NCBI RefSeq assembly: GCF_046119375.1
Contig: NW_027362762.1
Coordinates: 708,040,001 to 708,104,000, forward strand
DNA: 64,000 nucleotides
Direction of reading: 5' to 3'
Source of the DNA: Phyllobates terribilis
Lineage: Eukaryota
Shown here: piece by piece, positions 1,201 to 57,441 of the stretch
How the letters are laid out: the number at the start of each line of letters is the position of its first letter
Numbering within the stretch: the first letter of the stretch is position 1
Position numbers and translations under genes: made by a program
The notes under the pieces: generated by a model
The model's input: the letters and a program-made list of their open reading frames with translations, nothing else
The model's database searches: none
Told to the model about the DNA's origin: nothing

Positions 1201-4200
1201 TTCCCAACACGTTACGTATAAAAAGCCCTCTATTTGATAAGTTTATTTACAGCGTGAAGCAGGTGTACACGGTCTGGTTTCCTTAACAATGGAGGACACC
1301 AACATGCAGGCTGCGATAGGCTCAGTTTCTCCAGGCACAAGCTTATGCTTGAAGCAAAAAGTGACAGATACGCATATGCTATGTTTGAATCTCTCTGAAC
1401 CTTTTTGAACTGATGACCGAAACGTTTTGTACACTTGTCTCCTGGTCAGAACAGCCATTCAGCAAGACATGGTGGCCAGTAGAATGAGCAGTTTCTTCTT
1501 ACTTCAGCACTCCTGGTATCTCCAGTATTAGAACAGAAAGACAAGGCGGACAGCAGTGTGTGCAGCCTTTTCTTACCTCAGCATTAGAGATGAGCATATC
1601 AGGCAAAATTCTAATTTTCCTGTTTGCGTGGATTTCACTGGGAACTTCAATTTGCAGAGAAGTTATTCTCCGTAAATGTAATATCCCTTTGCTCTGGGGT
1701 CTCTCCAGATCTCAGAGCATAATAAACATGAGATATAAAAAATAATAAAAATCCTTATGCTTACCTCACCACTCACCTTTCCGGACGCCTCTGCTGCTGC
1801 CTGCCCATTGTTCAGTCCTGCGTGCGTCCATCATGCCACATCTCAGTCCTAATGTTCATTCAATGCCTGTACTTCCGGTGCTGAGCATACGAAGTGAACA
1901 TCGTGTCATGCTCAAGGCCAGTAGCCCCAGCCTAGAATGAACACAGGGCCGGAGATGCAACATGACAGAGGCACAGAAGACCATACATAGGGCAGGGAGC
2001 AGCAGGGGAAGCCAAAAAGCTAATCAGATGACAAAAAGATAAAAAGAAGAAAAAAACTTACTCATCTCGGGCTGTCCTCACTGCTCCCTGGCCACTGTCC
2101 AGTTTTATACATCTTTGTCTTGTCACATCTTCAGCTCGGTGTTTACTCAAGACCGTGTCTTCTGGCTGCTAGCAGATTCGGAGCATGTGTAATAGTGGGG
2201 AAGAGCGCAGCCTTCCTTTGGCACTGAAGTAGTTATAGAAAGTGTTCCTGTAGTTAGACCTATCTGAACTGTTGGTAGGCCAAGCTAAGGGGTTAGCTTC
2301 AGTGGTCCAGTCAGTAGAGTAGAGGGGGAGCTTAGTGCCCTGATCAAGCCTTGAGTGTTATAGAGCTTGTTCCTGGCATAATTACTTGTGGGCTGCAGTA
2401 CCTATAACCAGCCACAAGATGCCACTGTCCTGGGTGCAGATGTCAGGTTGAGTTTGCTAGCAGTGTACAGGCAGTAATGGGGTTAATGCTGTGTGATGGC
2501 AGCCCACAGAGGGTGGGCACGTTAGGAAAATCCCTGCTTAGTTTCCAGAAGCAGGAAGTGATGAGTAGTAAGAGATAGGACAGTGAACCGTACAGGCAGC
2601 CTGACTATATGGTGGCTGCTAGGGTAGACGGGAGCTCCATACCCTCAGACAGTGGGATCACCAGTGTAAAAGTCTCCCTACGCAAGAGTCCTGTTAGCCG
2701 GCCGGAGAAAGTCAACAGAGGTATTGAGGACTCGGGGCACTTCTAGTCTGCAGGAAGCAGAGGAAGATAAATAGGACTCCAGGCTAAGACGTGGGGAGAT
2801 ATTGGATCCGGAACACTGTTGGTATTGCAGAAGAGTCTCTTGGGCTAGAGATTAGAGTCACAGAGATGCTTCACTTAAAGAGGGAACCAGGGCTGAAGAT
2901 GTTGCCAGCACCTGTGAGGGAGATAATAGCCTGTCGGGCCTTATCCATTATATCTGCCTGTAAATATTATACACATTCCTCTTCCCCAAGTAAAGTCCAA
3001 GTTATGGTTAAGAACCTCGTGTCCTCTAAATTTATTGCTGCCCTGGTCCCAGAAGAGAAATGCCTGGAGACAGCCGCGATAGGATGGTTTGAAGTAAGTG
3101 GAGAGCCCCACATACACAGCCACACATCAGAGGGAGAGGGGGCTACAGCTCGCCCATGACTACCTCGCTGGGGCACCTTACACATGCACAGCAAAATTCT
3201 GGGACATGCTGACTGTGGTGGAGAGTTGAGCATTGAGGTATGTTTTGGGGGGGGGGGGTTTTAACCCTTTGCTGGCCCTCTATTGTTCAGCAAGAGAGGA
3301 TGTAGAGCACTGTGGGCAGTCTCTTACTTCAGCACTACTGGTACCTCCAGCAGGTGCGTACCGTCCATAGCGGCAGCCCACGCTGCTGCTATGGGGCCTG
3401 CAAGACAGGTGGGCCTGATGTGCAACACCATCGGACCCCTCTATCTCCCATCACAATTTCAACAGTATCTGCATTCCTAGCTTGCAGATACTGTTGTAAA
3501 CAACCAGGCACGGTCAGAACCACGGGAGGAGGTATTCACCTCTGGCTGCTCTATGTCCGGCGCAGAGTGCAGAAAATGTCTCAATGTTGGCTCTGTTAGA
3601 GCAGGAGAGGAGGCTCCGCCCACCTGTTCTGGCCTCCAGCACAGCAGAGCGGCTGCTTACAACATGGCCCCTGCTCTCCCTACCTCCCTGCTCTGTATGT
3701 TAGTCCTCTGCTCTCCCCTTCTTGCCTTCTGCTCTGTGTTACACGCACGCTGCTAGGATCAGATAGGGGCAAGACAGGTTATATGAATTCTTTGGAATTC
3801 TGGGGGAACCGTTACTCAGGACGACCATAGACCATGTGCTGCAGCTTCTCTCAGGAACACATGGGTATTGACCCTCAGGCACAGACACGTAGGTTGTTTC
3901 ATTTGCTGACCAGACACACTTGACAAGAGTCCTCATAAATGGTAGAACAGTAGCATTTAATAAGAAGCCGCACAGCCAGTGCAAGATAAGTCTTATGAGC
4001 AACAGGCTCCAGAGACAAACGTACAGTTTCCTTAGCAGCACAGCAGTTCACAGTCTTCCCAGTAGCAGAGAAAAGCAAAGTTCTAATGCAAAGGCACATT
4101 AATGAACAAAGCATTCTTTACAGCAAAGTGAGATGGAGGAGGGGGGGGTGTTTGCTGAGGGAGATGATCCCTGTAACACCATTTCTTCCAGTCCTTATCT

Positions 4201-8965: not shown

Positions 8966-10269
8966 ATGAGACGGACTCTACAACCCACAGAAGTTTCTCA
9001 GGTAGTGCAGCTCATCCAGGATGGCACATCAATGCGAGCTGTGGCAAGAAGGTTTGCTGTGTCTGTCAGCGTAGTGTCCAGAGGCTGGAGGCGCTACTAG
9101 GAGACAGGCCAGTACACCAGGAGACGTGGAGGGGGCCGTAGGAGGGCAACAACCCAGCAGCAGGACCGCTACCTCCGCCTTTGTGCAAGGAGGAACAGGA
9201 GGAGCACTGCCAGAGCCCTGCAAAATGACCTCCAGCAGGCTACAAATGTGCATGTGTCTGCACAAACGGTTAGAAACCGACTCCATGAGGGTGGTATGAG
9301 GGCCCGACGTCCATAGATGGGGGTTGTGCTCACAGACCAACACCGTGCAGGACGCTTGGCATTTGCCACAGAACACCAGGATTGGCAAAGTCGCCACTGG
9401 CGCCCTGTGCTCTTCACAGATGAAAGCAGGTTCACACTGAGTATATGTGACAGACGTGACAGAGTCTGGAGACGCCATGGAGAGTGATCTGCTGCCTGCA
9501 ATATCCTTCAGCATGATCGGTTTGGCATTGGGTCAATAATGGTGTGGGGTGGCATTTCTTTAGAAGGCTGCACAGCCCTCCATGTGCTCGCCAGAGGTAG
9601 CCTGACTGTCATTAGGTACCGAGATGAGATCCTCAGACCCCTTGTGAGACCATATGCTGGTGGGGTTGGCCCTGGGTTCCTCCTAATGCAGGACAATGTC
9701 AGACCTCATGTGGCTGGAGTGTGTCAGCAGTTCCTGCAAGATGAAGGCATTGAAGCTATGGACTGGCCCGCCCGTTCCCCAGACCTGAATCCGATTGAGC
9801 ACATCTGGGACATCATTTCTCGCTCCATCCACCAACGTCACCTTGCACCACACAAATTGACAAGAGAGAGAGAAAAATATTCAGCTCACCTGATTGCTGT
9901 AGGCTTTGACTGAAGGGAAGCACGGATACGTGTGGCCTTATTCACACTCTCATGTGATCCAGTTTACTGATCTCATTGGTTGCCACTGGATATAATATCC
10001 TAGTGTGTTATATGCAGGTTAACTTTGACAAAGAGCACAGGTCTGTGTTCGAAACGAGTTGCAACTTTTTTCTATGTGAGATTCCCCGATATAATTTGGA
10101 AATTTTTAAACTGCGTGGATTCATCTCAATAAATTTTGAACTTTTGGAAGCTGGTTTTTCCGTTCTTCTTTACCTTGCACCACAGACTGTCCAGGAGTTG
10201 GTGGAGACTGTCCAGGAGATCCCACAGAAGCATCCACAACCTCATCAGGAGCATGCCCAGGCATTGTAG
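8966..10269 (+). pseudogene. Tc1 DD34E transposase pseudogene
   Basis: [20 protein letters not shown].. HTH region; VLFTDESRF, LLMQDNVRPH and WPARSPDLNPIEHIWD motifs; in-frame stops (e.g. RRY*, RRP*, HGE*) and a 319-bp insertion at 9853-10171. Confidence 0.9.
9853..10171 (+). mobile_element. Short retro-insertion, probably a Penelope-like pLTR fragment, inside the Tc1
   Basis: Flanked by the 13-bp direct repeat ACCTTGCACCACA (9840-9852 and 10172-10184); contains TTGACAAA-GAGCAC-aggtct-GTGTTC-GAAAC (degenerate hammerhead-like core) followed by AATAAA. Family assignment is inference. Confidence 0.6.
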
Positions 10270-12500: not shown

Positions 12501-15500
12501 TGCATAAGCGAACGTGTGCTCTGATGTGCATTATTTTTTGGGAGTGTACGCCTACTAGAGATGGACACTCAGATGTAGTAGGCAGCGTCTGAGTGTCCAC
12601 CTCCAATAGGCGCACACGCCCGAAAATGATGCACAACAGAGCACATGTTCACTTTGCCGGCACCATTATAGTCTCTGGCCCCGTCTATGGCTCGAATTGC
12701 GGGTGGTTCGGACGTAAGCCCCAATGGAACCAACAAATGGGTGCCAGAACACAGTGTGAAAGCACCCTTAGCTATACACTATAAAAGATAAAAGCTCTCA
12801 TTGCAGGAGAATGACAGCAGATAGAAAAAGCCAAACCAAAAGTCAATTGCAAACTTTCTTACTTTCATGTTGCCTAACTAATTTTAAAAAAATGAATAAC
12901 TTGAGAATACCCCGTTAATCATTTCACACAATGTTCTCTAACTGCTCACAAGGATTTACATGTACAATCTGTAAAATCTCTTCATTCACCTACTTTTTAA
13001 AAATGTTTGTAATATACTAAAAAGCCTATGCAGCACTGAGATTGTTAGCTCCAGTAATATAAACATAGAAAAAGTGTCCCAGCACATGAAGTATAGAAAG
13101 GGGTTAATCAGCCATCCTTAGTGCTAGGGTGATTAAACACCTTTAGAAAGGGAGGAACTCAGAGGATAAATTCCCAACCTTTTAGAGCATTTGGTGTGGG
13201 AAGGGCCTGAATGCACAAGCTCTGGAGCTGTGGTGCTCATGTTAAGGAAAGCTAAACCTTGGGCTGTGATTTGTTCCTTTGGGCGGACACCCATAGCAAC
13301 AAGGACTGTGCCATACGTTATGTTTTGTTTTTCCTGTTAAGCCGGGAAGGCCGTGTTTGTTTTACTAATGTTGCCGTGGTTTATGCCGTACTCTTAATAA
13401 ACCACAGAAAATTTAAATAGACAGTGTTCCTGTGTCTACCTCTATGTTCAACCAATTGAGCCAATCTACCACAACAGTTACAGTATCTTTCCCCACCGCA
13501 TGGAGTGTATATGTGAATTTCTAAGTAAACAGTATTACATGCCATCTACTAATCTATGATATAAAGAAAAAAGAAGAGCAGTGTCTATGAATTGCTGTTT
13601 TTGGAGGCACAATAATATCAAACTGTAATTTAAAAGGTTAAATAATAAAAGCATAAATGAGTGTGCATAATAGTGGTGCCATCATGAAGTTATTCAGCTA
13701 CACTACAAATGTGCCATACAAAATAGTGCCCAAGGGTATGTATATAGCATAGAGATAGACCATGAGGCTGCTATGAGTTCAGTGGATAGAAGAGGCCCAG
13801 GCATGGTTCCCCAAAAGGTGGCAAGAACATATGCCAGGCTGCCCTACAAAGTTAAGCTGTGGAAAAATTGTTTCTAAGCAGTCAGGGGCTTAGTTTAATG
13901 TTTGTTATGTGGCCCTATCTTTTCTGTGTATGTCTCGCCCCCAGTGGGGCCTTACTGTCTGGGGCAGTATATATGTATATCACGGTGGCTGGCCCAGGGC
14001 GGACAGTGCGCCAAAAAGGGAGTTTAATAAAATGAAAATAAAATTTCTTACCTGTGGATTCTGGTAAGAGGTTACCAGCACTGCGACAGTCCACCGAGGC
14101 CGATGTTAGGGGCAGCGTTGACGGGACGGCTCCCCACAGGTGGAGTAGGCCTCAGGGCAGTGTAGGATGAATGAATGGTGGGTGCGCTGGGCGTTGTGGT
14201 GTGGTGAGGAAAGTTGGCGCCAGTAAAGAAACAGACAGAGGCACTTTGTGCAGTCGTCCAGGGCTTTACTTACAGTTCTTTAAGGCAATCCACATGTGCA
14301 CTTTACAGGTGAAGGCCTCCCTCATCGCGCTGCGTTCACCAGGCAGGGGTTCAGTCCTCCTTAAAGCAGCTTAGGGGTGCTTGGCAGAACCCCACTTTCA
14401 GATGTGCCTAACTTGACCTTCTTCACACTTGGTCCTTCTCACCGTTGCCCTACGCTGCCCACTCTCAGTCCCGCTCGGGTATGCTGAAGTCCTTCTCGTA
14501 CGTCGGATCCGGGACCAACCTGACCCCCTGGGGTTTCGAATGTGGCAAGCACGATCCCACCTGTCTCCTGGCAGGAGCGGGGCGTACGGGTGCCGTCCTG
14601 CACGCGCCGTACCCCCTGGGATCCTTTTTGTAGAATGGAGCCTGTTCCCTGCTCCCCTCCGGGGCCTCTATCCTGGGCTCTAACTTGTGGAGCAGAGCTC
14701 TGACTGAGCCTCTGCTCCCAGACAGTACTGAACTGACTGACTGAATGTATGTTCCTACAGACCTAATATGGCTTCCTATTATATACTTACTTTATATGTG
14801 CTCCATGTATTAACTTCCTCCACCCACACCCACTACTGGTTCCCCCTACCTTTGGGTTCCCCCCTACTCCAGCCAGGGCCAGGGCTCAGCACAAAACTAC
14901 ATTGCGTCTTGCCCCTCCTGCTGGCCTGGAGCGGTGTAGTGTTGGATGTAGGTGGTTGGGGTTCTGTGCAGCACTCCCATCTTACCTGAGATAAGGGAGA
15001 CACCACACCTCGGGGTGAGGTGCAGTATGTCTGTGGCGACTGAACCCTCAGGGGCGCCACATTCCCCCCCGGTAAAACACAGCACGTCCTCGGGCTGGAA
15101 CAAAGCAAACAAAGAATAAACGACATGCAAAATTTTATAAAACATTTCTTCCCTTTATGGGAGGTATACTTCCTTTAAACGTTACATTGTAAAACACTTT
15201 TCTCATAACACATCATAAGAGCACTTTTCAATAAAGTTCCTGCACCAGGGTGCAACAGTAGTAGCATGAGGGACCCGCTCCAAACTCTCAACGTAGGCCC
15301 TGGGTGTGGCTGCTGGGCATGGACGATCCAGATACTGGACCTCGTCTTCTGCCACGCCAACGGGTTTTTGTTCTGAGGTATATTTGTTTCAAATATAAAA
15401 CCAGTAGGGTGCACTTTAAGAAGTGCTAACTATGTACAATGTTAACGTCCGGGTACTCACAGTCCTCAGCCTGTGTACCCTGACGGGTAATGGTAGAGAA

Positions 15501-15596
15501 ACACACTATAGAAAACTTCACACTGTGAAAACATTATTTTAAAGTCATCCTGGCAAACTTAGCAAAAAGAAAACAACACAGCACCCGAATGAGTGA

Positions 15597-17108
15597 CTAT
15601 AAGCAGTTAGTTGTAGTCCCAGTACTAAGCCTAGTACTGGGGACCCGTCCTGGGGTATTCTTGATGCTTCCCTGACCCAGCGGGGTCACGAGGGACTTCC
15701 TGCAGGGGTTATCTTTGGTGATACGGTACACCTGCAGGGCATACCAGCCACGTTCACCATGATGCCGGGTGAACTTGACGTGATCCCCCCCCCAGCGTAG
15801 AGGTTCTGGTCGAGATGGCCTTCTTCCAACTCGGGCTCCACATCCCTCTTGTTCACAAAAATGTCTGTATTAAATTCAGGGTTGCGAATGAAGCCCCATC
15901 CAGCCTGGAGGTTGAATTTTACTATTAGGCCTTCCTCACGGGGGCTGGGGTTGGCTGTCTCCGCCTCATGGGTCTGCGCCTTGGCGGCCTTGTCTCGGGC
16001 CTCCAGGCGCTCACTGCGCGCCGCCCGCGCGCGTCGCTCCCTCTCAAGCTGCCGGAGCTCCCGCCGGCAGAACTCCTTCCTCTGCCGGGCGGCAGACTCG
16101 GTTTCCTGGGAGAACCCCATCAGGTCCCCCCCCGGTTGTCCCAGCATAACTCTTCTCCGCCGGGGCAGGCAACCGGGGGTGCGGGCATTGGTAGAAGTGG
16201 GCAGGGCTGCTGGTCTTCATACCGTGCGGACCAGTCGAAGACCGGCGCACCATAGACCCATGCCAGGGTCAGAGGTGGAGGCGGCGGAAGGGCTTCCAAT
16301 AGTAGGCCCGCAGCTTCTGCGCCCGGGATCAATGGTTCCGGATAGGCGCTGTATATGTCACTTTCCGGTGCAGCACCTGGGAGCGGCAGTTCCGGGATGG
16401 CTTCAGGTGGGTGCCCTTTTGGTTCCGCTCCCGGGGGTGAAAGTTCCGGGCTGCACATTTGTTCCCACCAGGGCACGGCGGTACATGGCGAAGGCGGGGG
16501 TAAGAGGCCCAGGAGCAGGTCGGCGTTGGCAGCGCCCGGGGCTGGGGATTCTCTCCTATCTGCTCCTGGACTCCGCACGGCCTCCTGGTCTTCGGCAAGC
16601 TCCGCCAGGGCTGGTGCGCGGCTGCTGGCATCCGGTCTGGCTTCCGGCCTCACTTTCTGGCGGGCTGCCAGTTTTCTCAGCAGCTCGCTTTTCCACCGGG
16701 CGACCGCTGCCTGCTGGGCTCGCTCGACTTGCTGGCCCAGCTCGAGGATCTCACTCCCGAGGAACTCCACATCCTCTGGGGACATCTTCTCTCCCTCCTG
16801 GGTGAGGGGCGTCGCTTGCTGCAACGGTAGGCCTGAGGCGAAGGTTGGGCTTTTGCGTGGTTCCATCTCAGCTGTCTGACCAGACAGGTGGAGACCACCC
16901 CCTGTCTCCATTCTTTCTCTCCGCCTCCTTTCTTCTTTTGGGGCCGGTCCAATGGCCACTTGCTGTCGGTCACTCCCCGTGACGGCCCCCCCGCTTTGAC
17001 AGACACATCTATGCGGACATTCACTGTTGCAAGGGGCAGGGCCTGCTTTCGGCGCCATTCTGGGACCCGGCCCACGATGGGAGGCTCGATTTTGTTGTCT
17101 TTTGACAT
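15597..17108 (-). pseudogene. Frameshifted ORF homologous to 34791-36833, with C-terminal cold-shock domain
   Basis: Pieces MSKDNKIEPPIVGRVPEW..KWPLDRP, then ..GGDLMGFSQETESAARQRKEFCRRELRQLERERR.., then GLIVKFNLQAGWGFIRNPEFNTDIFVNKRDVE..LYAG[frameshift in G9 run]DHVKFTRHHGERGWYALQVYR; at least 3 frameshifts are needed to join them. Confidence 0.8.
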
Positions 17109-17207
17109 GCAGACAATGGCGCCCGTTCTTCTGGGGTGGGCTCCACATTCAGTGCAGAAAGCACTTCTTCAGGCACACAATACCCGCAGATGGCGGGCTG
17201 GTCACGC

Positions 17208-17225
17208 ATCCTGTTCGTGACGCCA
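17208..17225 (-). promoter_or_regulatory. Primer-binding site, tRNA-Ser(CGA)-type
   Basis: Minus strand TGGCGTCACGAACAGGAT, 9 nt after the LTR end; complementary to the vertebrate tRNA-Ser(CGA) 3' end ATCCTGTTCGTGACG+CCA (tRNA sequence from memory). Confidence 0.8.
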
Positions 17226-19508
17226 AAAGCAAGCTGTCTCGCCCCCAATGGGGCCTTACTGTCTGGGGCAGTATATATATGTATATCACGGTGGCTGGCC
17301 CAGGGCGGACAGTGCGCCAAAAAGAAGGTTTAATAAAATGAAAATAAAAGTGCGTGACGCCACCTGGTAAGAGGTTACCAGCGCTGCGACAGTCCACCGA
17401 GGCCGATGTTAGGGGCACCGTTGATGGGACGGCTCCCCACAGGTGGAGTAGGCCTCAGGGCAGTGTAGGATGAATGAATGGTGGGTGCGCTGGGCATTGT
17501 GGTGCGGTGAGGAAAGTTGGCGCCAGTAAAGAAACAGACAGAAGCACTTCGTGCAGTCGTCCAGGGCTTTACTTACAGTTCTTTAAGGCAATCCACATGT
17601 GCGCTTTACAGGTGAAGGCCTCCCTCGTCGCGCTGCGCTCACCGGGCAGGGGTTCAGTCCTCCTTAAAGCAGCTTAGGGGTGCTTGGCAGAACCCCACTT
17701 TCAGATGTGCCTAACTTGACCTTCTTCACACTTGGTCCTTCTCACCGTTGCCCTACGCTGCCCACTCTCAGTCCCGCTCGGGTATGCTGAAGTTCTTCTT
17801 GTACGTCGGATCCGGGACCAACCTGACCCCCTGGGGTTTCGAATGTGGCAAGCACGATCCCTCCTGTCTCCTGGCAGGAGCGGGGCGTACGGGTGCCGTC
17901 CTGCACGTGCCGTACCCCCTGGGATCCTTTTTGTAGAATGGAGCCTGCTCCCTGCTCCCCTCCGGGGCCTCTATCCTGGGCCCTAACTTGTGGAGCAGAG
18001 CTCTGACTGAGCCTCTGCTCCCAGACAGTACTGAACTGACTGACTGAATGTATGTTCCTACAGACCTAATATGGCTTCCTATTATATACTTACTGTATAT
18101 GTGCTCCATGTATTAACTTCCTCCACCCACACCCACTATTGGTTCCCCCTGCCTTTGGGTTCCCCCCTACTCCAGCTATGGCCAGGGCTCAGCAGAAAAC
18201 TACATTGCGGCTTGCCCCTCCTGCTGGCCTGGAGCGGTGTAGTGTTGGAGGTAGGTGGTTGGGGTTCTGTGCAGCTCTCCCATCTTACCTGAGAGAAAGG
18301 AGACACTACACCTCGGGGTGAGGTGCAGTATCTCTGTGGCGACTGAACCCTCAGGGGCGCCACATGTACATCACCGACAGTGCTGTTACTCATATGCTCA
18401 ATGTCGGACTGGGATGCCAAGGACCCACCAATAACTAACTCTAGGGCCCCACTTTTCAGCTATATGCAAATATGACATTATCCTCAATCACAAATGTATT
18501 TAACAATGAACTGGGTAGATTGTTAAATGAATAAGATGCTGCCTTTGTCTGTATTTAGTGATTCAAGTATATTGTGCTAAGTACTGCTCATATCAGAGGG
18601 TGGTGCCCCACTCTTGCACAGGAGGATTCTCCTGTTCTCCTGTGGGCCAATCTAAGCCTGCATATGTTAACCACATGGCCCGTTTGATCAAACCTGTCAA
18701 GATTAGAATCCAGCAAATTTTTTCAGGGAAATTCAATTTGCATCAAAGTTATACGATACAAATTGAATGTTCCTTTTTGCTCTGTGGTCTCTCCAGACCT
18801 CAGAGCATAATAAAAGTAGAATTTAAACAAAAAAAAATGTATTCCTCACCACTTACCTGTCCTGCAGTGGTCCAGTCCTCCCCCGCTCTTTTTTATTTCG
18901 CCCTTCTCATCGCATGCATCCTCTTCGGGCTTCTTAACCGATTCCCGACCACCCGCTGTACATAAACGTCGGAGCTGCCTGGGCTCTGTGCAGCGCCGAC
19001 GTTTAAAAATGGTGGGTGGTCCCGCAGCGCTCAGGACCCCCAGGGTCCTGCAAGCGCTACGGTACCGGTTCAGAGCGATAGCTCTGACATGTGGCATCAT
19101 GGGGACCTGATTGGATCAGGTCCCCATGATGTTAACCTGTTCCTATCTTCTAGATGCCGCGATCCATAGCGATCGCGGCATTTAAAAGATAGTGACAGCC
19201 GGTGGTCGGCGATCGGGACCCCCCACATACCTTATCAGCGGCGGGGATTCCGGTGCTGTGACCTCTGACATCATCGAGACCTGATTGGCTCAGGTCTCGA
19301 TGATGTCAGCGTCACACCAGCCAATCAGAGAGATCACTAGGGAAGTTTGTTTTAGCAGCAAACTTTCCCGGGCGATCTGGCTGATAAATACATTGTTTCT
19401 CCTCCGATCTCAGTGAGAGAGCAGAGGAGAAACAGTGTGACAAGAGCTGTCAGCCTTGCCACTGTAAAAGTGAAAAAAAAAATCAAAAAAGAAAGTAAGG
19501 TTAGGGTT

Positions 19509-19985
19509 AGTCAGTCCTGTCAGATCAGTCAGTCCTGTCAGTCAGTCAGTCCTGTCAGATCAGTCAGTCCTGTCAGTCAGTCCTGTCAGATCAGTCAGTC
19601 CTGTCAGTCAGTCAGTCCTGTCAGATCAGTCAGTCCTGTCAGTCAGTCCTGTCAGATCAGTCAGTCCTGTCAGTCAGTCAGTCCAGTCAGATCAGTCAGT
19701 CCTGTCAGTCAGTCAGTCCTGTCAGATCAGTCAGTCCTGTCAGTCAGTCAGTCGTGTCAGATCAGTCAGTCCTGTCAGTCAGTCAGTCCTGTCAGATCAG
19801 TCAGTCCTGTCAGTCAGTCAGTCCTGTCAGATCAGTCAGTCCTGTCAGTCAGTCAGTCCTGTCAGATCAGTCAGTCCTGTCAGTCAGTCCGGTCAGTCCA
19901 GTCCGGTCAGTCCAGTCCGGTCAGTCCAGTTCGGTCCCGTCCATTCAGTCCGGTCCGTTCAGTCCGGTCCATTCAGTCCAGTCAA
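19509..19985. repeat. GTCA-rich minisatellite inside the piggyBac 5' region
   Basis: Repeated GTCAGTCCTGTCAGATCA / GTCAGTCAGTCCT modules that drift to CAGTCCGGT units at the 3' end. Confidence 0.95.
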
Positions 19986-20001: not shown

Positions 20002-21775
20002 ATGGCTCGTCAGACTTATACCGCAGAGGAGGTGTATGCCCTGCTGTGTTCTGACACTGATGACAGTGCAGTCTCAGATGGAGATGTGGATTTTGAGGGC
20101 TTTAGTAGCGGCGACACTGAGAGCTCAGAAATGAGCAGTGATTCTGCTCCATCCTCAAGCCCAAGGACCAGTACAGCAAATGGGAACACTGCCCAGTACA
20201 AGCGCTGTCCCTGCTACTAGTGAATTGGCGCACGCCAGTGTACAAGGGGCTTTGCCACATGATCTAGCATTTCCCAGATGGGAAGCTTCGGATTCGGCTG
20301 CTCCATTCAGTCCTGATTTCAACGCCATTCCTGGTATAAATGTGGAGGTGGAAGATTTTGGACCAATTCATTTTTTTAATTTGTTTTTTACAGACAGCTT
20401 GCTAGAGCATATTGTCGTGCAAACAAATTTATACGCATCCCAATTCATAAGCCAGAATCCCCGATGTTACTATGCTAGGAGCTTAATTTATGGACACCAA
20501 CTAATGTCCCAGAAATAAAAAAAATTTTAGGACTTACATTTGCCATGGGGCTTGTTAAAAAACCGAGCATTCGATCCTACTGGTCCAAACACCCTGTTCA
20601 AGCCACCCCTGTGTTTACAGTCGTTCTTACTAGGACCCGTTATGAAATGCTCATGCGGTTTTGGCATTTTAACGACAATAGTCAATGCCTGCCCAGAAAT
20701 GCCCCAGAACTTGACAGGTTATATAAAATTAGACCCATCATTGAAAATTTGTCAGAAAAATTCTTACGGCTCTACACCCCAACACAAAATATTTCTATAG
20801 AGTCCCTTGTAAAATTCAAAGGAAGACTGCACCTCAAGCAATTTATCCCATCTAAAAGGGCAAGGTTTGGAATAAAGATCTATAAAATGTGCGAAAGTTC
20901 AACCGGATACACATCCGCTTTTCGCATATATTAGGGGAAAGATAGCCAACTAAACCCACCAGGATGCCCTACTTATCTGGGGACATCTGGAAAAATTGTT
21001 TGGGAGCTGATAAGTCCATTTATTCAAAAAGGCTACAATCTATATGTGGACAATTAATACACCAGCATACCCCTATTTAAAAGTCTGGTTGAACACAACA
21101 TCGGGGCTTGTGGGACCATCCGTAAAAACCGTCAGGGGTTTCCACAACCATTGGTCAACCAAAAGTTTCAAAAGGGGCAGTCAGGGGCTGTACGCAACAG
21201 AGAGCTGCTTGCCCTGAAATATAGGGATAAGAGGGATATTTTTGTCCTCAGCTCGATCCACACAGATGCCACAAGGGCCACTGTAGAACTAGGATCCACC
21301 ACTCCGAAGCAAAAACCAGTGTCAGTAATTGACTACAGCAAACACATGGGGGGTGTGGACCTTGCAGACCAGGTTCTACAGCCATACCAGGTATCAAGAA
21401 AGTCCTATACCTGGTATAAAAAGTTGGTTATTTATTTGTTTCAGGTGGCCACATACAATTCTTTTGTGCTGTACAAAAAAGCAGGAAATTCAGATCATTT
21501 TCTTGATTATCAAGAAAAGGTAATTGAAAATCTTGTTTTTCAAAGTGTTAGCCCCGCTCATCCATTAGGAGGATGTGAAAAGACTCACTGAACGACATTT
21601 TATTGCACTTATTCCAGCAACGGAAACAAGAAGGAACCCCCAGAAAAGATGTCGTGTATGTACTAAGAGAGGAATGAGGCGTGATACCCGCTACTATTGC
21701 CCACAATGTCCATCATTGCCAGCCTTATGCGTCACTGACTGCTTTAAAATCTTCCACACAGAAACACGTTTTTAA
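20002..21775 (+). pseudogene. piggyBac (PGBD4-like) transposase pseudogene
   Basis: MARQTYTAEEVYALL.., FFNLFFTD, RYEMLMRFWHFNDN, KFKGRLHLKQFIPSKRARFGIK, YNLYVDN*YTS, GGVDLADQ and a C-terminal CRVC..RRDTRYYCPQC..LCVTDCFKIFH cysteine-rich domain; several stops and frameshifts. Confidence 0.92.
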
Positions 21776-24786: not shown

Positions 24787-26100
24787 TGTGACGCCTCTTC
24801 TCGGAAGCCCCTGTTTACCCTGGGAGATGGGGGACTCGGAGTCGGGTCCTGTGATGGAGAGATGGGGGTGCAGCCGTGGCCCGGGCCCGCTCCATGCCCA
24901 GGGCCGTCACATTTAAAAAAGGGTGGTATGGGCTTATCCGGGTTGAGTTGCTGATTACGACTACGCCACCTGTGGTACCTGGTGAAAGGCCACCAGCGCC
25001 GCTGCAGTCCGCTGAGGCATGGTGGTATGGCGGCCGTCATTGTTACTACTCCCCACAGGCGGAGCAAGGCCTCAGGGCAGAGAGACAGGATGGAGGGGGT
25101 AGTAGTAGAGGAGACCGGGTGCTGCGTAATGCGGTGTAGCGCAGAATAAAGAGTCCGGAGGCCATAGAGGTGAACTTCCAAATCTTTACTCACATAAGGG
25201 ATGGCAGTAGGAAGGCGACTCCCTGCTCCTCGCGGAGTTCTGCGGTCAACGGGAACGGGGGTCCGACAACCTCCGAGTAAGTCCAGCGTTAAATCAGGAC
25301 CCCGCACCAGAGTGTTCCTGAACTACAGACCGTATCCTTTCCTGTCTGTGTGGGTAGATAGGCCGGGTCTCCCTCTGAACTCCTCTCAGAAAAAGGGCAC
25401 GGGTGGCAGCTCTGCTCCTTCCGATACCCGGTGGGATCCTCAGGGCATACCGGGCTTTCCCGACCAGGACATAGAGTAGCAAGGTCGGGTGTCGGGGGCC
25501 GGTACCCCTCTTGCAGCCGGACTCCCTCTGAATATATCAGGTGGTGAGGACAGGTGGCGTACACCGCTCTGTCTGCCTCCTCCCTGGGATCCATTTGCTG
25601 TGGAGCTACACTCTTAAGCTCCGGGCCTTCTTGGTCATGGTCCTTGACCGGGTTGAGACCTCCATTATCTACAACCTGCCACTCGACCCAAGGCCAAGGT
25701 ACGAGGGCTGTGTCTCCATCCGCTGCAGGTCCACACAGGATCCATGCTCAGGGAGGGTGATCACAGTACCAAGACAGTCAAAGAACCATCAAAAGGCTAA
25801 ACTAAAAGGGCCAAGAACCAAAATTGCTCTTTATTAAAGATGAATTATTAAGTGTCACTAAAATGTGAATCCTCCACCTTCACCCACTAAATGGTTCCCC
25901 TAACTCTTGGTTCCCCAGTCTCCCTGTAACCAGGAGGGCAGCACATAGTGCATTCTAGCCCCCTCTGGTGGAGAAATGTGGTGTTGGATGTGGAAGTGGA
26001 GTCCTGACCATCACACTGTTCTTACCTCAGAGGAGGAACACTACACTCTATTAAAGAAGTGCAGCATCCCCGTGGCGGTCGAACCCTCAGGGGCGCCACA
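24787..26100 (-). mobile_element. Solo LTR, third lineage related to the CSD-element LTRs
   Basis: Minus-strand start TGTGGCGCCCCTGAGGGTTCGACCGCCACG is nearly identical to the lineage B LTR start; ends GGCGTCACA; 4-bp TSD AATA on both sides; inserted into a MITE. Confidence 0.85.
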
Positions 26101-28408: not shown

Positions 28409-30013
28409 TTTGAAGCCTGCACAACGGTGAATCCCGGTCCCAATGGGTTATAGAACAGACCTTGGCTGGGTTGAGATGGCCGTACTAAAACAGTACATGA
28501 AGCAGATATAACTGGCTCCATGTACAGATCCATGTGTTCATCCGCATAGTGGATGACAATGGGTCAGTTTATGGGTTTATCATTCCGATAAATATACATA
28601 GAATATGTACCCATGATATTCTATGTACAAGTTCACATGTCAATTTTTTTTTTCCTGACTGAATGTCTGCAAAAAAACAAACGAGACATGTTCATTTTTT
28701 ATCCTATTTGAGGATTAAACTTGCCCATTAAAGTGAATGGGTCTATTAAAGAAAACAGATGGCAAGCCGATGCCCTCAGTGTGTCTGCCAATTGCTGTGG
28801 GTCTTTTTTAATGTTTGGAAGCTTGTAAATTATTTTTTTTGCAAAAAAAAAAAAACAGATGCCACACTGATGGTAAAAGTAGACATGTACCAAAAAAAAT
28901 GGATGATCAGGAGGAGCACGGATGAGAAGCAGTCATTATTCTCTAAAACCGAACATTTACATGAGGACTTAGGGTCTGTAGAAGTAAGGCAACATATTTA
29001 CAAAGTTATTTACTATGTACTAGATTAATATAATGCATAAAAAGTAAAGATTAAGCCAGATTTTTAGAGGTTGAATATCTGAAGCCCAAAAATCAATTCT
29101 TATGGTTGATATTTTAGGACAAATTCCCACTGGTGATGCATGAGGTTAGAAGAACATGGCTGCCTTCCTTCAGAAGTAACACCACTTATGTCCAATGACT
29201 CTGTCTAGTGCTTTCTGGTATTAAGCATTTCTGTTTGTTGTTTTTTTTGGGGGGCTTTTATGGCATTTCCTAGGGAGATTGGGGATAGGGCAATTGGACA
29301 TTCAGTATTACAAGATGTGATTGGGCCAGCGCATCCAGGTGTCTCATGTGGGCAATTGTGGCAGCGCAAATGAGCTATCATTCAGGGAGGAAAGGGTGGC
29401 ACAGTTTAGAGAGGAAAAAAATCCTTCCCAAATGCACTTTCAGCCTGATTTGAATATGTTTTTTAAAGGCAATCTGTCTACAGGTTTTTGCTATTTTATC
29501 TGAAAGCAGCATGATGTGGAGGCAGAGAGTCTGATTCCAGGGACATGTCGGCAGCTTGCAATAGTTTGAATACAACTCCTCTATTGCGTTCCAGCATGGA
29601 GTCCATAACACGCTATACCATAAGTCTTTTTGGATTCATGGGGGGGCTGAGCATGTGCGTGATGCGCTAATGCCTATTGCACAGCTGTTTTCTATTTTCA
29701 TGGCAAGGCACTACTCTGACTTATTTAAATGTTGACACGCCCCTTCTAGGATTACCCCTATCCCGGCCACCATCTCTCCCCTTTCTATGTACAAAGAAAC
29801 TTGATTGGACACACTATATTATTTATACACTGGCCCCCTGAATTAAGACACCCCCCCTCCCCCGGAAGAAGCATATTGCGAAACGGCGTAGGGGTTCAGA
29901 GAAGTGAAGCTACACACTTTGGCACATCATGTCCATCATATACTGAAATTTCAGGTAATATACCATTATAGATGATTGCTTGCTTGCATGCTGTTGTGAT
30001 TGAGGCTGAACTA

Positions 30014-31703
30014 CAACCCCTGGCAAAAATTATGGAATCACCGGGCTCGGAGGATGTTCATTCAGTTGTTTAATGTTGTTGAAAAACAGCAGATCACAGA
30101 CATGGCACAAAACTAAAGTCATTTCAAATGGCAACTTTAGGGCTTTAAGAAACACTAAAAGAAATCAAGATAAAAAAATGTGGTACTCAGAAAGGGTAAT
30201 TTTTTTCAGACCAAGCAGAGGGAAAAAATTATGGAATCACTCAATTCTGAGGAAAAAAATATGGAATCATGAAAAACAAACACACAAAAGAACACTCCAA
30301 TACATCAGTAGTATTTTGTTGCACCACCTTTGGCTTTAATAACAGCTTGCAGTCTCTGAGGCATGGACCTAATGAGTGACAAACAGTACTCGTCATCAAT
30401 CTGGCTCCAACTTTCTCTGATTGCTGTTGCCAGATAAGCTTTGCAGGTTGGAGTCTTGTCATGGACCATTTTCTTCAACTTCCACCAAAGATTTTCAGAT
30501 TGAGATCCGGACTGTTTGCAGGCCATGACATTGACCTTATGTGTCTTCTTTCAAGGAATGTTTTCACAGTTTTTGCTCTATGGCAGGATGCATTATCATC
30601 TTGAAAAATGATGCCATCATCCCGAAACATCCTTTCAATTGATGGGATAAGAAAACTGTCGAAAATATCAATGTAAATTTGGGCATTTATTGAAGATGTA
30701 ATGACAGCCATCTCCCCAGTGCCCTTACCTGACATGCAGCCCCATATCATCAATGACTGTGGAAATTTGCATTTCTCTTCATGCAGTCATGTTTATAAAT
30801 CTCATTGGAACGGCACCAAACAAAAGTTCCAGCATCATCACCTTGCCCAATGCATATTTGCGATTCATCACTGAATGTGACTTTCATCCAGTCATCCACA
30901 GTCCATGATTGCTTTTCCTTAGCCCATTGTAACCTTGTTTTTTTCTTTTTAGGTGTTAATGATGGCTTATGTTTAGCTTTTCTGTATGTAAATCCCATTT
31001 TATTTAGGCGGTTTCTTACAGTTCGGTCACAGACATTGACTCCAGTTTCCTCCCATTCGTTCCTCATTTGTTTTGTTGCGCATTTCCTGTTTTGGAGACA
31101 TATTGCTTTAAGTTTCCGGTCTTGACGCTTTGATGTCTTCCTTGGTCTACCAGTATGTTTGCCTTTAACAACCTTCCCATGTTGTTTGTATTTGGTCCAG
31201 ATTTTAGACACAGCTGACTGTGAACAACCAACATCTTTTGCAACATTGTGTGATGATTTACCTTCTTTTAAGAGTTTGATAATCCTCTCCTTTGTTTCAA
31301 TTGATATCTCTCCTGTTAGAGCCATGATTCATGTCAGTCCACTTGGTGCAACAGCTCTCCAAGGTGTGATCACTCCTTTTTAGATGCAGACTAAAGAGCA
31401 GATCTAATTTGATGCAGGTGTTAGTTTTGGAAATGAAAATTTACAGGGTGATTCCATAATTTTTTCCTCAGAATTGAGTGATTCCATATTTTTTTCCCTC
31501 TGCTTGGTCTGAAAAAAATTACCCTTTCTGAGTACCACATTTTTTTTCTTGATTTCTTTTAGTGTTTCTTAAAGCCCTAAAGTTGCCATTTGAAATGACT
31601 TAAGTTTTGTGCCATGTCTGTGATCTGCTTTTTTTAAACAACATTAAACAACTGAATGAACATCCTCCGAGCCTGGTGATTCCATAATTTTTGCCAGGGG
31701 TTG
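30014..31703 (-). mobile_element. Tc1 transposon with long IR/DR-type TIRs, defective
   Basis: TA TSD on both sides; ~255-bp TIRs (30014-30268 / 31450-31703), each holding repeated ATGGAATCA direct repeats. Confidence 0.95.
30305..31325 (-). pseudogene. Tc1 DD34E transposase pseudogene
   Basis: MALTGEISIETKERIIKLL.., GRPRKTS, VTFSDESQI, IFQDDNASCH, WPANSPDLN[fs]ENLWWKLK; split over three ORFs by frameshifts. Confidence 0.92.
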
Positions 31704-32696
31704 TATATGCACCCAATTACCTGGCTGTGGATAGACATGTGCATTCAATTGTATGGTTGCTTGACTATATAGGTACTTGGCACTTTATATCATATGTTTT
31801 ATAGGCTGTTAATAACTAGTAACATACTATATACATAGTAAGTAGTATATAATATATTATATTCGTGTATACGTATATACATATGATATACGTGGTCTAT
31901 TTAAGCACATTGATACTTTTTTTTTGCTCTCTGCACTGTTAAATCATCTAGTTAGATGTAAATTAATTTTCTGGACTAGATATCTTGTTGCTTTGTCCCA
32001 TTTTCATTGTGAATTCCACAGGATGCTTGATGGTGTGAGTGGGCATTGATGTAACCTAGCTTCATATATCATCTCTCTTCATTGGAGGTTTTTCGTCCCA
32101 CCCTGTTTCTTGTATTCCTTTTTAATATTTGCTGTATTTAATAAAACTTACTGTTTTTATCTAGCTAGAGTCTCTGTCATCCTGTAGTATTGATTATGCT
32201 CCGTAAGATTATATGTATATTATAGTTTCAATACAATCAGTTTTTTTTATCAGCAGGAGATTATCACTGCTGGACAAGGCGTCATGTGCAGGCCAGTCAG
32301 GCTAATCTGTCTAACCCCACCCCCAGCGCTGATTGGCAGGTTGTTGACAATGCACAGTGTACATAGAAAGCTGCCAATCAGTAGTGTGGGCGGGGTTATA
32401 CAGGGCTCAGCATTCTGAGCACTGTCACATCTACAGCAGAGAAACCAGGGATTCTATCAAAACTACACCAAGCAGCTCAGTAAGTGACACATAGCTGAAA
32501 TCAGGATCTCAAACCCTACAGCATGCTGCTCTCAAATGGGGTAGCAATAAAACAGAAGACAGATACAATTTCTCATAACTGGATAACGTTTTCTATGATC
32601 CCTGTTTAAATGAATTAGTCACAGAAATCTCTGCCACAAATAACATATGTGGACATACCGGACTTCTAGGATGAAAAACCACATTTGAGGCCTCGG

Positions 32697-33055: not shown

Positions 33056-34790
33056 TAGTTTATCAGTCACAAATAACTTCACCTAAAACACATACACAGT
33101 ATTACTGTCAGATGAGTTTATGGTAAATATGATTTTCCTATTTACTTTGTAATGAGCAATGTTAAATTCTCCAAAATTAGTCATTGAAAGCTGACTTGGT
33201 ATAGGAGGTAACGCGATCCTGGCCAGCTTCAAAACAGTGCATACAAGCTTATTAGAGAACCGCTTATACACAGTGTGTATGTTCTGCTGTCTAGCAGCAG
33301 TGGTCGGTCTCCAAGGCAACAGGTTGTAAACATGAAAATAGTATTAATAGCTCAAGAATGGCTGAAACTTTTAAAAAGCAGCGAATTGCAACAAAATTGC
33401 TTGTATTTAAAAGCAATGACAGTATTAATTTATGAAGATGGGAATGGTCCTTTACGTATCTCAATTTCTCACAAAACAAATGCAATATAATGTCACGACT
33501 TAGCATGCTGCAATCCACAGCAGAACCACTGGGGGGCCACATATATACTGTAGCAAATACATCACATGTACATATTGCAACCTAAGACCAAAGGTAAGAA
33601 AAGGTGTAGCACCCTGAGGATTCGGCTGCTACAGGGGTATTGCACCTCAACCCAGAGGTGTGATATTCCACTCCCGGGTAAGGATGGAGTGTGGAACTGA
33701 GCTCAGAAAGCTGCATGCACTACACACATCCCATTTCCGAGGAGCAGACCAACGGTACTCCCACTTAGAAATGTGCAGGTACGACCGAGTCTGTTCCTGG
33801 CTGGAGTGGGAGGGGGGTGGTACATCCCAGTAGTGTAGGGGCAGATAGGGGGAGCAGCCTGGGTAAAGTTAGGAGCTCATTGGGTGCTGGTCACCTGAGC
33901 TCACACATAGAGGGAGTATATAAGGTGGGCACCATCTAAGATCAGGGTCAGTCTGTCAGCCTTTTGTCAGAGCAGAGCAGAGGAAGAGAGCAGAGGAGAA
34001 GAGCAGCTCCAAGGCCCAGAGAGAGAGAGGAGAGAAAGAGAGACCCAGAGGGGGAAACAAGAAGGAACTCTGAGAACCCACATACAAACCTAGGGTGAAG
34101 AGTTGGCAATAGGGTACCGGATCCCAAACTGGTGGGGGCTAAAGCACACCTCAGCCAGAGACCGGAGGCCGTGGGCAGGATCTGCCACGGCCACCCACCA
34201 CATCCACCCTGAAGGCAAACCACGTGTAGGGTCAGGGAACCTAAGGCCAAGGGTCTCCCAACAGAAGGCCCGAGGGAGCTGGACCTAGGTGGATCCCTGG
34301 TGGGGACGGCCAGAAGAAAGGACAAGAAGGAGGGCTCAGGGACACGCTCCGGACTTGCTTGGGGGTTGGCTGAATCCAGGACCTGGTGGACGCAGCACGG
34401 CTCGGGTGGTCACTTAAGGCCGGAGTGACCGGAATATCTGCAGTAAGTAAACACCCTGAACTGCACAACCCGACTCTGTCTTTAATTTTCATCTACGCTG
34501 CACCACCACAACCCCCATCCTCTGCACCTGACCCCCTGAGGCCATACCCCTCCCGTTGGGGGTTATACTATCTAAAGCTGCACCAACACCATCAGCCTCA
34601 GCGGACCCTGCTGCAGCGGCGGCCGTAGTGACCGCAATCCAACGGGTGGCGTAGTCGACATAACGAACTTTGTAACATCTGTAGGACTGCCACATACTCT
34701 GAGCTTGACACCCTGGGCACGGACCGGGTCACAGCCACTCGGAGACTACAACCCCCATCTGATCCGGCTCCGGGTATTCCCCTAAAGAAT

Positions 34791-36833
34791 ATGGCCCAGG
34801 GGGCGCGTCAACTTTGGCGTAGTCGGCAGGATTACGTGCCCGCAACACCCGGGTACTGCGTGCCTGAAGAAAAGAACAAGTTTACCTCAAAAAGAAGTCT
34901 CCTGCCGGTTCCGGAGGGTCCCCGCCATCGGACTCCATCACAGGTCGATTCCCGCCGGTTGTCCGCCATTAACAGCTTTTTCCCGCCATCTGCAGAGTTT
35001 CCCGCCACTGGGAGACGATTCCCGCCATTTCCAAAGGTTTCCCGCCTTGGAAGAGCGGACGCCATTATGGGCGTGCCAGAGGATGGCAAGAGGCCGCCTC
35101 CCATCGTGGGCCAGGACCGAAAATGGCGCCAAAAGTGGAAACCGCCCCCACCAACAGAGACTGTGATGCTAGAGGTGTCTGTCAGCGTGAAAGAACTGCC
35201 CCTGGAGCTGACAATCACCAAGTGGCCCCGGGACCGCCCTCGAGGTGGGAGGACTGAGAAGAAGAGAGCAAAGATGGGTGTCGCCTGGAGCAGTCTGGAG
35301 AGAGCGCACCCGGAGACAAGAAGCCTAGAGCTGAGTCCAGAAGAAGCTTACCCGGAGATGGAAGAAGAGCAGAGCAGCACCGGCCCGCTGGCCAGGAGCC
35401 TGCTGGAGACAATGGAAGGAGAGCAGAGCAGCACCGACCCGTTGGTCAGGAGCCTGCTAGAAGCAACGACCCCACTAGGCTTAGTGGAGGTCCTGGCACA
35501 GCTCCCCCGAGATCGGGAGTGTGCACAGACTGCGCTGGAGGGCCTCGCACGGAGGATGGCCCGGGTGCAGCGAGAGACGTTAGCGGAATGGAGCCGAGAG
35601 ATGGCCCAGCAGACAAGAACCCGTCAGCGGAGCACGCCACCCGAGACGAGGAGACAGACCGCCTCTGAGGATGGCGCAGGAGGACTGAAGGCCGGAGACG
35701 GCGCCGAGAAGGGAGCCGAACGAATGGAGGCAGGTAAAGGGGACGTCTCTACCCCAAACCGGGAAACCGCGCACCTGCCCCAGCTCCCCGTCGCAGAGCC
35801 CGAAGTATCCCCTGCCGTGCCCGTCGCTGCAACGTCACCGCCGCAGACTAGGCCTCAAACGGAAGCCGCGACCCCTGTGACGTCACACGCCTCGACCCCG
35901 AGCGTGACCAAGCAGGAAGTACTACCAGCCTGGTCGCAGGGCCTAGTACCCCCGGGCGCCGCAATACCAACAGCGCCCCCTACCTCCGCGGAGCCACCGG
36001 CCTGGTCGCAAGGCCAAGTAGCCCAGGGCGCCGCCGTCCTTACGGTGCCCTTCACTTTCCAGGTGCCCCAGGCCTGGCCGCAAGGCCTGGGCAACCCGGG
36101 CGCCACCACCACCGCGCCCATAAAACCAAGAGTGCCGCATCTGGGAGAAGATCTGTTCGCCCAACATACGTGCCCGGATGGGCAGCCCTTTATATGGCCA
36201 CCGGAGTTTCACCATCCCCGACTCTGGAAAGAGAGACCCTTAGACGAGCCCCTGATTCCGGTTCCAAAGCCCGTAAAAAGGACCTCGCCCCCGCTAGAGG
36301 AGGCACAGTTTGAGTGGGACCCCACCGGAGAAGATCTCATGGGGTTCACTCAGGAGACTCGGGCAGCTGCAGCGGAGCGTGCAGAGTGCTGCCGCCAGCA
36401 GCTCGAGGTCTTTGAGAGGGAGCGGAGAGAGAGGCGGGTCCGAGAACAACAAGCGCAGATAAGGAGCGCGGAGCAGAAGAGCCGGGCCAGGAGGAGTCCC
36501 CGTGCAGCTCATGGTCCCCCTTCCACCGGGACTGTGATCAAGTTCAATATGCAGCACGGGTGGGGTTTCATCCGAGATCACCGCACCCCAGGCGACGTCT
36601 TCGTGACCAGGAGAGACGTTGAGTCCCACCTACCGGAGGGACACAGAGGACGTGACCTGTATGTAGGGGACGAGGTCACCTTCACCCGGCACAAGTGTGC
36701 CAAAGGACCCTACGCCCTCCATGTGCATCGCCTGACGGAGGAGGAGCTGCGGTGTGAGGAGGAGCAAGAGGACCCGGACGGGTCTGAAGCTAAAGGTAAC
36801 CACAAAGAAAGAGCAGGAGGACGCCGTCGTTAA
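34791..36833 (+). CDS. Uncharacterised retroelement protein with C-terminal cold-shock (OB-fold) domain
   Basis: 680-codon open frame; likely start is ATG 35067 (GCCATTATGG), matching the lineage B start. CSD at ~36525-36734: TGTVIKFNMQHGWGFIRDHRTPGDVFVTRRDVE..LYVGDEVTFTRHKCAKGPYALHV, with RNP1-like (GWGFI) and RNP2-like (DVFV) motifs, preceded by an E/R-rich predicted coiled coil. Confidence 0.85.
   Translation: MAQGARQLWRSRQDYVPATPGYCVPEEKNKFTSKRSLLPVPEGPRHRTPSQVDSRRLSAINSFFPPSAEFPATGRRFPPFPKVSRLGRADAIMGVPEDGKRPPPIVGQDRKWRQKWKPPPPTETVMLEVSVSVKELPLELTITKWPRDRPRGGRTEKKRAKMGVAWSSLERAHPETRSLELSPEEAYPEMEEEQSSTGPLARSLLETMEGEQSSTDPLVRSLLEATTPLGLVEVLAQLPRDRECAQTALEGLARRMARVQRETLAEWSREMAQQTRTRQRSTPPETRRQTASEDGAGGLKAGDGAEKGAERMEAGKGDVSTPNRETAHLPQLPVAEPEVSPAVPVAATSPPQTRPQTEAATPVTSHASTPSVTKQEVLPAWSQGLVPPGAAIPTAPPTSAEPPAWSQGQVAQGAAVLTVPFTFQVPQAWPQGLGNPGATTTAPIKPRVPHLGEDLFAQHTCPDGQPFIWPPEFHHPRLWKERPLDEPLIPVPKPVKRTSPPLEEAQFEWDPTGEDLMGFTQETRAAAAERAECCRQQLEVFERERRERRVREQQAQIRSAEQKSRARRSPRAAHGPPSTGTVIKFNMQHGWGFIRDHRTPGDVFVTRRDVESHLPEGHRGRDLYVGDEVTFTRHKCAKGPYALHVHRLTEEELRCEEEQEDPDGSEAKGNHKERAGGRRR
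34815..34833 (+). promoter_or_regulatory. Primer-binding site, tRNA-Ser(AGA/TGA)-type
   Basis: TGGCGTAGTCGGCAGGATT, 4 nt after the LTR end; complementary to the vertebrate tRNA-Ser 3' end AATCCTGCCGACTACG+CCA (from memory). Confidence 0.88.
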
Positions 36834-57300: not shown

Positions 57301-57441
57301 CCTGGGACACTGTCTCTAATAACTACACACAATCAGCAAAATCTGAAATCAATGTGCCAATCTCAAGGTTTCCAGTTTATGTGAATTATACTAAAGATCT
57401 GGAACAATTTTACCTAAACACTGTGTCAATCTAGTGTGAGT

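Follow-up and report, generated by a model that had tools for sequence, protein, structure and literature searches.

A poison-frog family of long terminal repeat retrotransposons encodes a cold-shock-domain protein under purifying selection

Non-autonomous long terminal repeat (LTR) retrotransposons are usually regarded as non-coding or as gag/pol remnants; the LARD and TRIM classes are internally non-coding. In acutely transforming retroviruses and helper-dependent vectors, the replication genes are replaced by a captured cellular gene, and the resulting genomes depend on a helper with which they recombine. Here we describe an element at positions 13931–18364 (minus strand) of a 64,000-nucleotide stretch of the Phyllobates terribilis genome (hereafter the window; contig NW_027362762.1, 708,040,001–708,104,000 of the forward strand). 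The element, old and disrupted, belongs to an abundant frog LTR retrotransposon family whose open reading frame (ORF) ends in a cold-shock domain (CSD). We call its lineage B, and that of a young relative in the same window lineage A (33605–38502, plus strand). Like LARD and TRIM elements, these have LTRs, a primer site, a polypurine tract (PPT), a 4-bp target-site duplication (TSD), no pol and cis-sequences in common with an autonomous partner; they differ in that at least three unrelated LTR types have retained a non-gag protein, on which purifying selection is strong. By analogy with transforming retroviruses, the family would likewise carry cargo in exchange for replication genes and depend on a helper, whereas it shows no env or sign of infectivity and its cargo is long-lived and diversified (CSDs 33–68% identical among lineages). 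A frog comparison is offered by Xenopus 1a11/xretpos(L): in the accessible part of their description (PMC4585706), these too are LTR elements with one ORF, no pol and many copies. There 1a11 encodes a Gag-like 71-kDa protein, and by that description they are set apart from the present ORF, which has no Gag match and ends in a CSD.

The lineage B element is a 4.4-kb LTR element with TG...CA ends, flanked on both sides by the TSD TACA. Its 5' LTR (17235–18364; TGTGG...GAGACA) and 3' LTR (13931–15061) differ at 43 of 1128 aligned bases (3.8%). Reading down the minus strand, the primer-binding site (17208–17225) is followed by a leader or 'PPIVG' block (16945–17155), a first predicted long helix (approximately 16660–16790), a WD..G.DLMGF motif with a predicted 49-residue helix (approximately 15932–16140; together the coil block), the CSD, likely Y-box-derived (15724–15931), a 3' untranslated region (UTR; 15098–15630) and a conserved CAGCCCGAGGACG motif with the PPT (15062–15097). 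The primer site matches the complement of a tRNA-Ser(CGA) encoded in the genome (locus L286), as the original prediction had it; Ser tRNA genes made up 6 of the 30 loci examined for primer sites, the remainder being mostly element primer sites. Lineage A had been assigned an AGA-type site, but this fits tRNA-Ser(AGA) (three loci) and Ser(UGA) (two loci) equally well. Set against three natural B copies, whose frames are open over 507–511 aa, the window copy carries four frame breaks, near 16.87, 16.13, 15.79 and 15.71 kb; its CSD is itself broken by a frame shift.

The lineage A element (TSD AAGG; LTRs 33605–34810 and 37297–38502) differs between its LTRs by 4 mismatches in 1206 bases (0.33%), and its 679-aa ORF (34794–36833) is open, with the CSD at about 36522–36740. 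The first ~90 codons of this ORF correspond to U5, primer site and leader, a stretch with its homologue in the non-coding leader of an autonomous Gypsy element, H2. A and B LTRs, described as different in the original prediction, are alignable at their ends only; the motif directly preceding the PPT is common to both. All three protein blocks said to be common to the two lineages were found when the A ORF was run by tblastn against the B element (coil plus CSD, E 5e-31; PPIVG block, E 5e-9), and so was a helical fourth block (E 5e-6). The CSD is the sole Pfam match in the A ORF and two open-frame B copies, with none to gag or pol; no retroviral gag-pol or env Pfam match was found in A or B, nor any tblastn match to the gag-pol of a second autonomous Gypsy, H. 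Rfam (hammerhead and other RNAs) gave no match at gathering score within the window, which separates the element from LTR retrozymes. With LTRs, TSD, primer site, PPT, many dispersed copies and cis-sequences in common with an autonomous Gypsy partner, and lacking both reverse transcriptase (RT) and integrase genes, it has the testable features of a non-autonomous Ty3/Gypsy-type LTR retrotransposon.

Searches of the species' own 10.6-Gb genome with the C-terminal block of A returned 41,945 first-look candidates (the 150 scored being 99–100% identical) and those with the B block 38,921 (79–91% identity besides self), figures that do not equal copy numbers. An exact pattern for the motif preceding the PPT matched 565 times, with none in the control; coil and CSD lie upstream in 28 of 30 such loci read, and none of the 30 matched the window's two pol-bearing elements. 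LTR pairs differ by 0.1–2.7% in A-type elements and by 2.4–4.8% (median 3.4%) in B elements (17 of 20 regions each, two of the B values from partial LTRs). B pairs are thus the more diverged and B is the older wave, as had been proposed from the two window copies. The expectation of an old family in several lineages also proved right: A, B, C, D and K are siblings with mutual CSD identity of 54–68% (D and K were found by Pfam search), and families F and J lie deeper, their CSDs 33–46% identical to A and B, with unrelated LTRs and no DNA similarity to A, B or C. 'Deeply diverged', as B had been called, is therefore relative, B being one of about five siblings and F and J much deeper. ORF length across the family is ~510–750 aa; F has 1,031-bp LTRs that are ~99% identical and 819-aa frames, and J has LTR pairs 85–90% identical and a primer site that we take to resemble tRNA-Ile.

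Natural copies were codon-aligned (saturated pairs were dropped for A); as the copies share ancestry, their pair counts are not independent observations, bootstrap intervals cover codons rather than independent lineages, and the identity filter lowers dN in the linker. Purifying selection on coil and CSD is strong in A and B alike. The ratio of non-synonymous to synonymous divergence (dN/dS) is 0.07 for the CSD of 19 A copies and 0.08 for that of 29 B copies, and 0.11 (A) and 0.26 (B) for the DLMGF/coil block. As uncorrected proportions (pN/pS, codon bootstrap), the CSD gives 0.18 (0.11–0.26) in A and 0.13 (0.08–0.19) in B, or 0.16 and 0.08 when CpG-free, against 0.84–0.98 for LTR DNA read as codons, our control; the first helix gives 0.31 (B) and 0.50 (A), and the family J CSD 0.22 (0.16–0.31; seven copies). 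A captured gene piece kept by chance, or by constraint on its RNA, would be a neutral passenger, which we regard as very improbable. In the CSD, differences reach 0.35 and 0.27 at third codon positions, far above the 0.05 and 0.06 of second positions, and between A and B pS is saturated at 0.78 with pN at 0.30, the inequality of synonymous and non-synonymous divergence that the original prediction had asked a codon alignment to reveal. In ten A copies picked for a long open frame, phase is held from primer site to stop over eight lengths (591–693 codons); the nucleotide indel-length test is weak (multiples of three, 43% versus 24%). For CSD and helices these codon tests refute neutrality.

Neutrality does describe the PPIVG block, and only that block. 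Here the predicted purifying selection fails: differences are flat across codon positions (0.121/0.105/0.111 in A; 0.106/0.107/0.139 in B), pN/pS is 0.83 (0.60–1.14) in A and 0.74 (0.51–1.08) in B, both intervals including 1, and between the lineages pN (0.29) is close to pS (0.32). The same stop interrupts the frame in three of four lineage C copies. The block is a leader conserved as nucleic acid, read in frame in A and B by happenstance. It carries repeated GGCGCC/ATGGCG motifs; a conserved RNA structure was considered and is not established, since 25 sequences yield just one short, nearly invariant hairpin of seven pairs with little covariation. Protein-binding DNA motifs, the ATGGCG repeats being YY1-like, may be an alternative account of its conservation.

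CSD changes common to at least two copies have a dN/dS of 0.07 in both lineages (77 synonymous to 17 non-synonymous, and 47 to 11), whereas changes confined to single copies give 0.40 (A) and 0.61 (B). With shared changes constrained and single-copy changes relaxed, selection acted during replication of the source lineages and decay followed insertion, which argues for a benefit at the level of the element. Were the ORF instead kept by the host, as a germ-line or embryonic RNA-binding protein useful to the frog, selection would act on the frog; we consider this quite improbable, because selection is seen on the common changes while single copies decay, because a stop-free frame of at least 490 aa persists in just 8 of the 150 best B matches as against open frames of at least 680 aa in 133 of the 150 best A matches, and because lineages replace one another in waves. 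In its favour are homologues in two poison-frog families, found by protein searches in Ranitomeya variabilis and R. imitator (Dendrobatidae) and in Anomaloglossus baeobatrachus (Aromobatidae); we do not treat four further proteins (P0001, P0002, P0155 and P0156) as independent of the window's genome. It can also appeal to a cluster (L233; G000:C4:791.48–791.52 Mb, with L239–L242 and L259–L261) of three tandem intronless ORFs whose CSD is divergent and retains the V[YF]VH RNP2 motif; one copy is open (299 aa), no LTR pair lies within ~10 kb, and the cluster is a candidate for a domesticated gene or an old relic.

The C terminus of the ORF belongs to the cold-shock domain superfamily, which is marked by a five-stranded barrel with RNP1/RNP2 motifs: Pfam places the CSD above cut-off in A and two natural B copies, and a fold search matches cold-shock proteins. 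Folded as a single sequence, the whole B protein gives two long helices and disordered linkers (model confidence, pLDDT, 48.5; poor outside the helices); with a 36-sequence alignment, the C-terminal part gives a model at pLDDT 92, in which the 49-residue helix precedes a five-stranded cold-shock barrel. We think it probable that the CSD was captured from a Y-box gene. The profile of these 36 sequences places YBX1 and YBX2 top, gapless and at 49–50 bits, and bacterial Csp scores no higher than 38; neither Lin28 nor CARHSP1 is among its 35 matches, and both rank last with a narrower profile. A Y-box protein is defined by a near-invariant CSD (including W65 and H87 of YBX1) and a long basic/acidic tail. 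The element protein, ~28% identical to YBX1/2, is not one by this definition: the W65 and H87 equivalents are replaced and it has no such tail. It resembles YBX1 and YBX2 (FRGY2) in the barrel, the length of the Y-box loop, the gapless profile alignment and the F74 and F85 equivalents, which are kept; it differs in that its CSD is C-terminal, behind helices and a proline-rich linker, and in being intronless and mobile. Elsewhere in the genome we noted what we take to be an intronless, broken CSDE1-like copy (L203–L208; G000:C1:734.44 Mb) and a degenerate Y-box-like CSD (L223).

Several points weigh against a Y-box origin or against RNA binding of the Y-box kind. A single element sequence scores bacterial Csp about as well as YBX1, nor does the fold search tell Csp, CARHSP1, Unr and YBX from one another. 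A 35-row CSD tree clusters 26 element and frog CSDs (89/87, unstarred) apart from CSDE1 and bacterial domains, with no intact Y-box protein among its rows. F74, F85 and W65 are the residues named as RNA-binding in the accessible part of PMC13542982; with the W65 and H87 equivalents replaced, binding may differ or be weaker, and binding to single-stranded RNA or DNA is a prediction from the fold and the kept aromatic residues.

The original prediction had missed the autonomous partners, and recombination with them. H is a complete Gypsy element of 8,471 bp (LTRs 98.3% identical, TSD CAAC), nested in a lineage C copy; it encodes a PNMA-type Gag (Pfam 7.7e-6) with a zinc knuckle, a protease and RT, with one break in pol and with RNase H and integrase recognised by eye. 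H2, of which two copies were read, has gag and a 1,448-aa pol frame (LTRs 98.4 and 99.4% identical). Neither contains a CSD or an env-sized ORF after pol. They resemble the PNMA-type-Gag Gypsy elements related to Gypsy12_DR, as far as the accessible part of PMC3789554 describes these, in H's Gag; H and H2 have U5, primer site and leader or 3' UTR in common with B and A, from which they differ in bearing gag-pol and no CSD (H would be placed with them by its Gag match). B and H have in common the U5 end, the Ser(CGA) primer site (present in 26 of 30 H-family loci), ~480 nt of 3' UTR and the PPT; alignment scores are 206 for the 3' UTR (shuffle maximum 43) and 76 for U5 plus primer site (maximum 31). 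A and H2 match at the U5 end, at the primer site and over roughly the first 250 nt of the leader (score 257, shuffle maximum 43). This H2-like leader is present in all nine A copies whose LTRs differ by at most 0.8%, and older A copies have a B-like leader (eight of nine) or a mixed one (one of nine), which reads as amplification after a recent recombination with an active helper.

Co-packaging and template switching could account for such mosaics. Lacking gag and pol, the elements would borrow Gag-Pol from related autonomous Gypsy elements, and we think it very probable that they have been co-packaged into helper particles, with template switching exchanging LTR ends, primer sites and leaders; helper-dependent retrotransposition is likely, judged from the mosaics. 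Further mosaics are found in the L313 family (L313, L316–L325), at least 40 mini-elements in which an H-like LTR and leader are followed by a 75-aa ORF that closes with the latter half of a K-type CSD (pN/pS 0.32, 0.16–0.66; 10 copies), and L314 is an H-related mini-element without cargo. These also complicate the picture: cargo-free L314 and the half-CSD L313 family, of the same Gypsy group, amplified too, so mobility does not require the full protein in cis. The LTR bodies of H and H2 differ from those of B and A, and the A 3' UTR matches H2 at the PPT only; H and H2 are helper relatives, and candidate helpers at most.

A GAGGACTG stem-loop-like motif, which occurs twice in the A 3' UTR and also in those of B and H, raises the possibility that the protein acts on the helper, by binding shared 3' UTR or leader motifs of autonomous Gypsy RNA, or by binding Gag, to which long helices could tether it, and so diverts particles to the parasite RNA. 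That lineages track different helpers would suit this account. Neither H2 nor the C copy examined yielded the motif, the binding is purely predicted, and we judge the account improbable. Three candidates for a helper were discarded: the internally deleted Gypsy at 57.2–63.0 kb of the window, which shares a Ser-type primer site with the CSD elements but not their LTR ends; L096, which looked autonomous but holds a LINE insertion; and the products of a search with a variant pre-PPT pattern, three matches that are apparently A-type by matched sequence.

Our preferred account begins with a Gypsy-type ancestor whose gag-pol would have been replaced by one gene ending in the likely Y-box-derived CSD. 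The helices would serve self-association or tethering and the CSD would bind single-stranded RNA, so that the protein protects, stores or delivers element RNA, which would then compete for helper Gag-Pol in the germ line. That it acts at the level of the element, as a ribonucleoprotein organiser favouring its own element RNA, is the reading that we favour by a modest degree, on the modelled fold and the pattern of selection. The spread of cargo-free and half-CSD derivatives would also fit a benefit in trans: the protein might be a counter-defence that competes with or blocks host Y-box, PIWI-interacting RNA (piRNA) or HUSH-type silencing, helping all elements in the cell. The domain probably derives from a host RNA-binding family, and gene capture as anti-silencing is described for Drosophila telomeric elements (accessible part of PMC13534243), where, as is likely here, host RNA-pathway gene sequence lies inside a retroelement family. 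The Drosophila captures, however, are by that account short fragments acting via piRNAs at 76–95% DNA identity, whereas here a whole domain is kept as protein, ~28% identical to YBX1/2, with selection on its amino acids; and a shared benefit is open to free-riding, yet several lineages retained the gene. We hold counter-defence to be unlikely. Beyond the element-level organiser, a wider picture can be drawn tentatively, at somewhat less than even confidence: an old, satellite-like superfamily of frog retroelements with its own Y-box-derived RNA-binding protein, whose cargo passes from one Gypsy LTR type to another, unrelated one (Ser-CGA, Ser-AGA/UGA and a third primer), which tracks the active helper by recombination, outcompetes helper RNA and contributes to the giant genomes of poison frogs. 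A host RNA-binding domain that was captured and then kept by several lineages with unrelated LTR types, at a dN/dS below 0.1, would mean that a parasite's parasite can gain lasting advantage from a protein of its own, and the CSD elements offer a natural system for asking how element RNA competes for helper particles.

Protein searches gave no relative outside poison frogs, a weak negative, as gene sets are usually repeat-masked and two of the searches scored 8000 candidates each. Annotation that relies on pol misses the elements, and they turn up inside gene models: P0002, P0155 and P0156 are apparently fused to element CSD pieces, for example as an R3H/coiled-coil model with an N-terminal element CSD. 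A literature search over titles and the starts of abstracts found no CSD-encoding LTR element (repeat databases such as Repbase and Dfam, and supplements, lay outside its scope), and an unpublished repeat-library entry is possible. 'Cold shock' is absent from the accessible parts of the frog transposable-element papers searched. One poison-frog genome has a large 'Unknown' LTR fraction, by the accessible part of its report (bioRxiv 10.1101/2023.11.06.565769), of which CSD elements may be part.

Some splice-like features were seen in passing. A pyrimidine tract followed by YAG, resembling a splice acceptor, stands immediately before the pre-PPT motif in all 30 loci read (15098–15125 in the window), and a donor-like GGTAAG lies near the LTR start (positions +73 to +76) in A, B and C and is absent from H and H2. 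Joints near the PPT were considered as splices and rejected: they follow a repeated motif, and the four runs compared are contigs that look like DNA (depth is highest in the LTR), which is neutral on expression.

Elsewhere in the window, a lineage C solo LTR (24787–26100, minus strand; TSD AATA) represents a lineage whose full-length elements elsewhere bear the same coil and CSD, an apparently solo LTR of the distant CSD-bearing family F (2188–3182, plus strand) is 81% identical to the L268 LTR, and a short remnant at 3737–4018 (minus strand) resembles the family J LTR (73–82%). A chromodomain Gypsy occupies 44823–49796 (plus strand; matches to gag, protease, RT, RNase H, integrase and chromo; LTRs 97% identical). 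The internally deleted Gypsy with the Ser-type primer site lies at 57167–62991 (minus strand), its 3' LTR split by an inverted-repeat insertion at 57437–58195. Exons of an olfactomedin-domain gene are present at 40704–41564 (Pfam OLF 3e-82) and 43927–44310 (minus strand), and the CSD elements lie 3' of this gene. Sequences at 20135–21591 (plus strand), 30012–31705 and 9029–9913 we take by eye to be DNA-transposon remnants, piggyBac-like and Tc1-like; the inverted ends of that at 30–31.7 kb are 97% identical. Tandem repeat arrays at 19459–19924 and 63128–64000 have periods of ~35 bp and ~20 bp.

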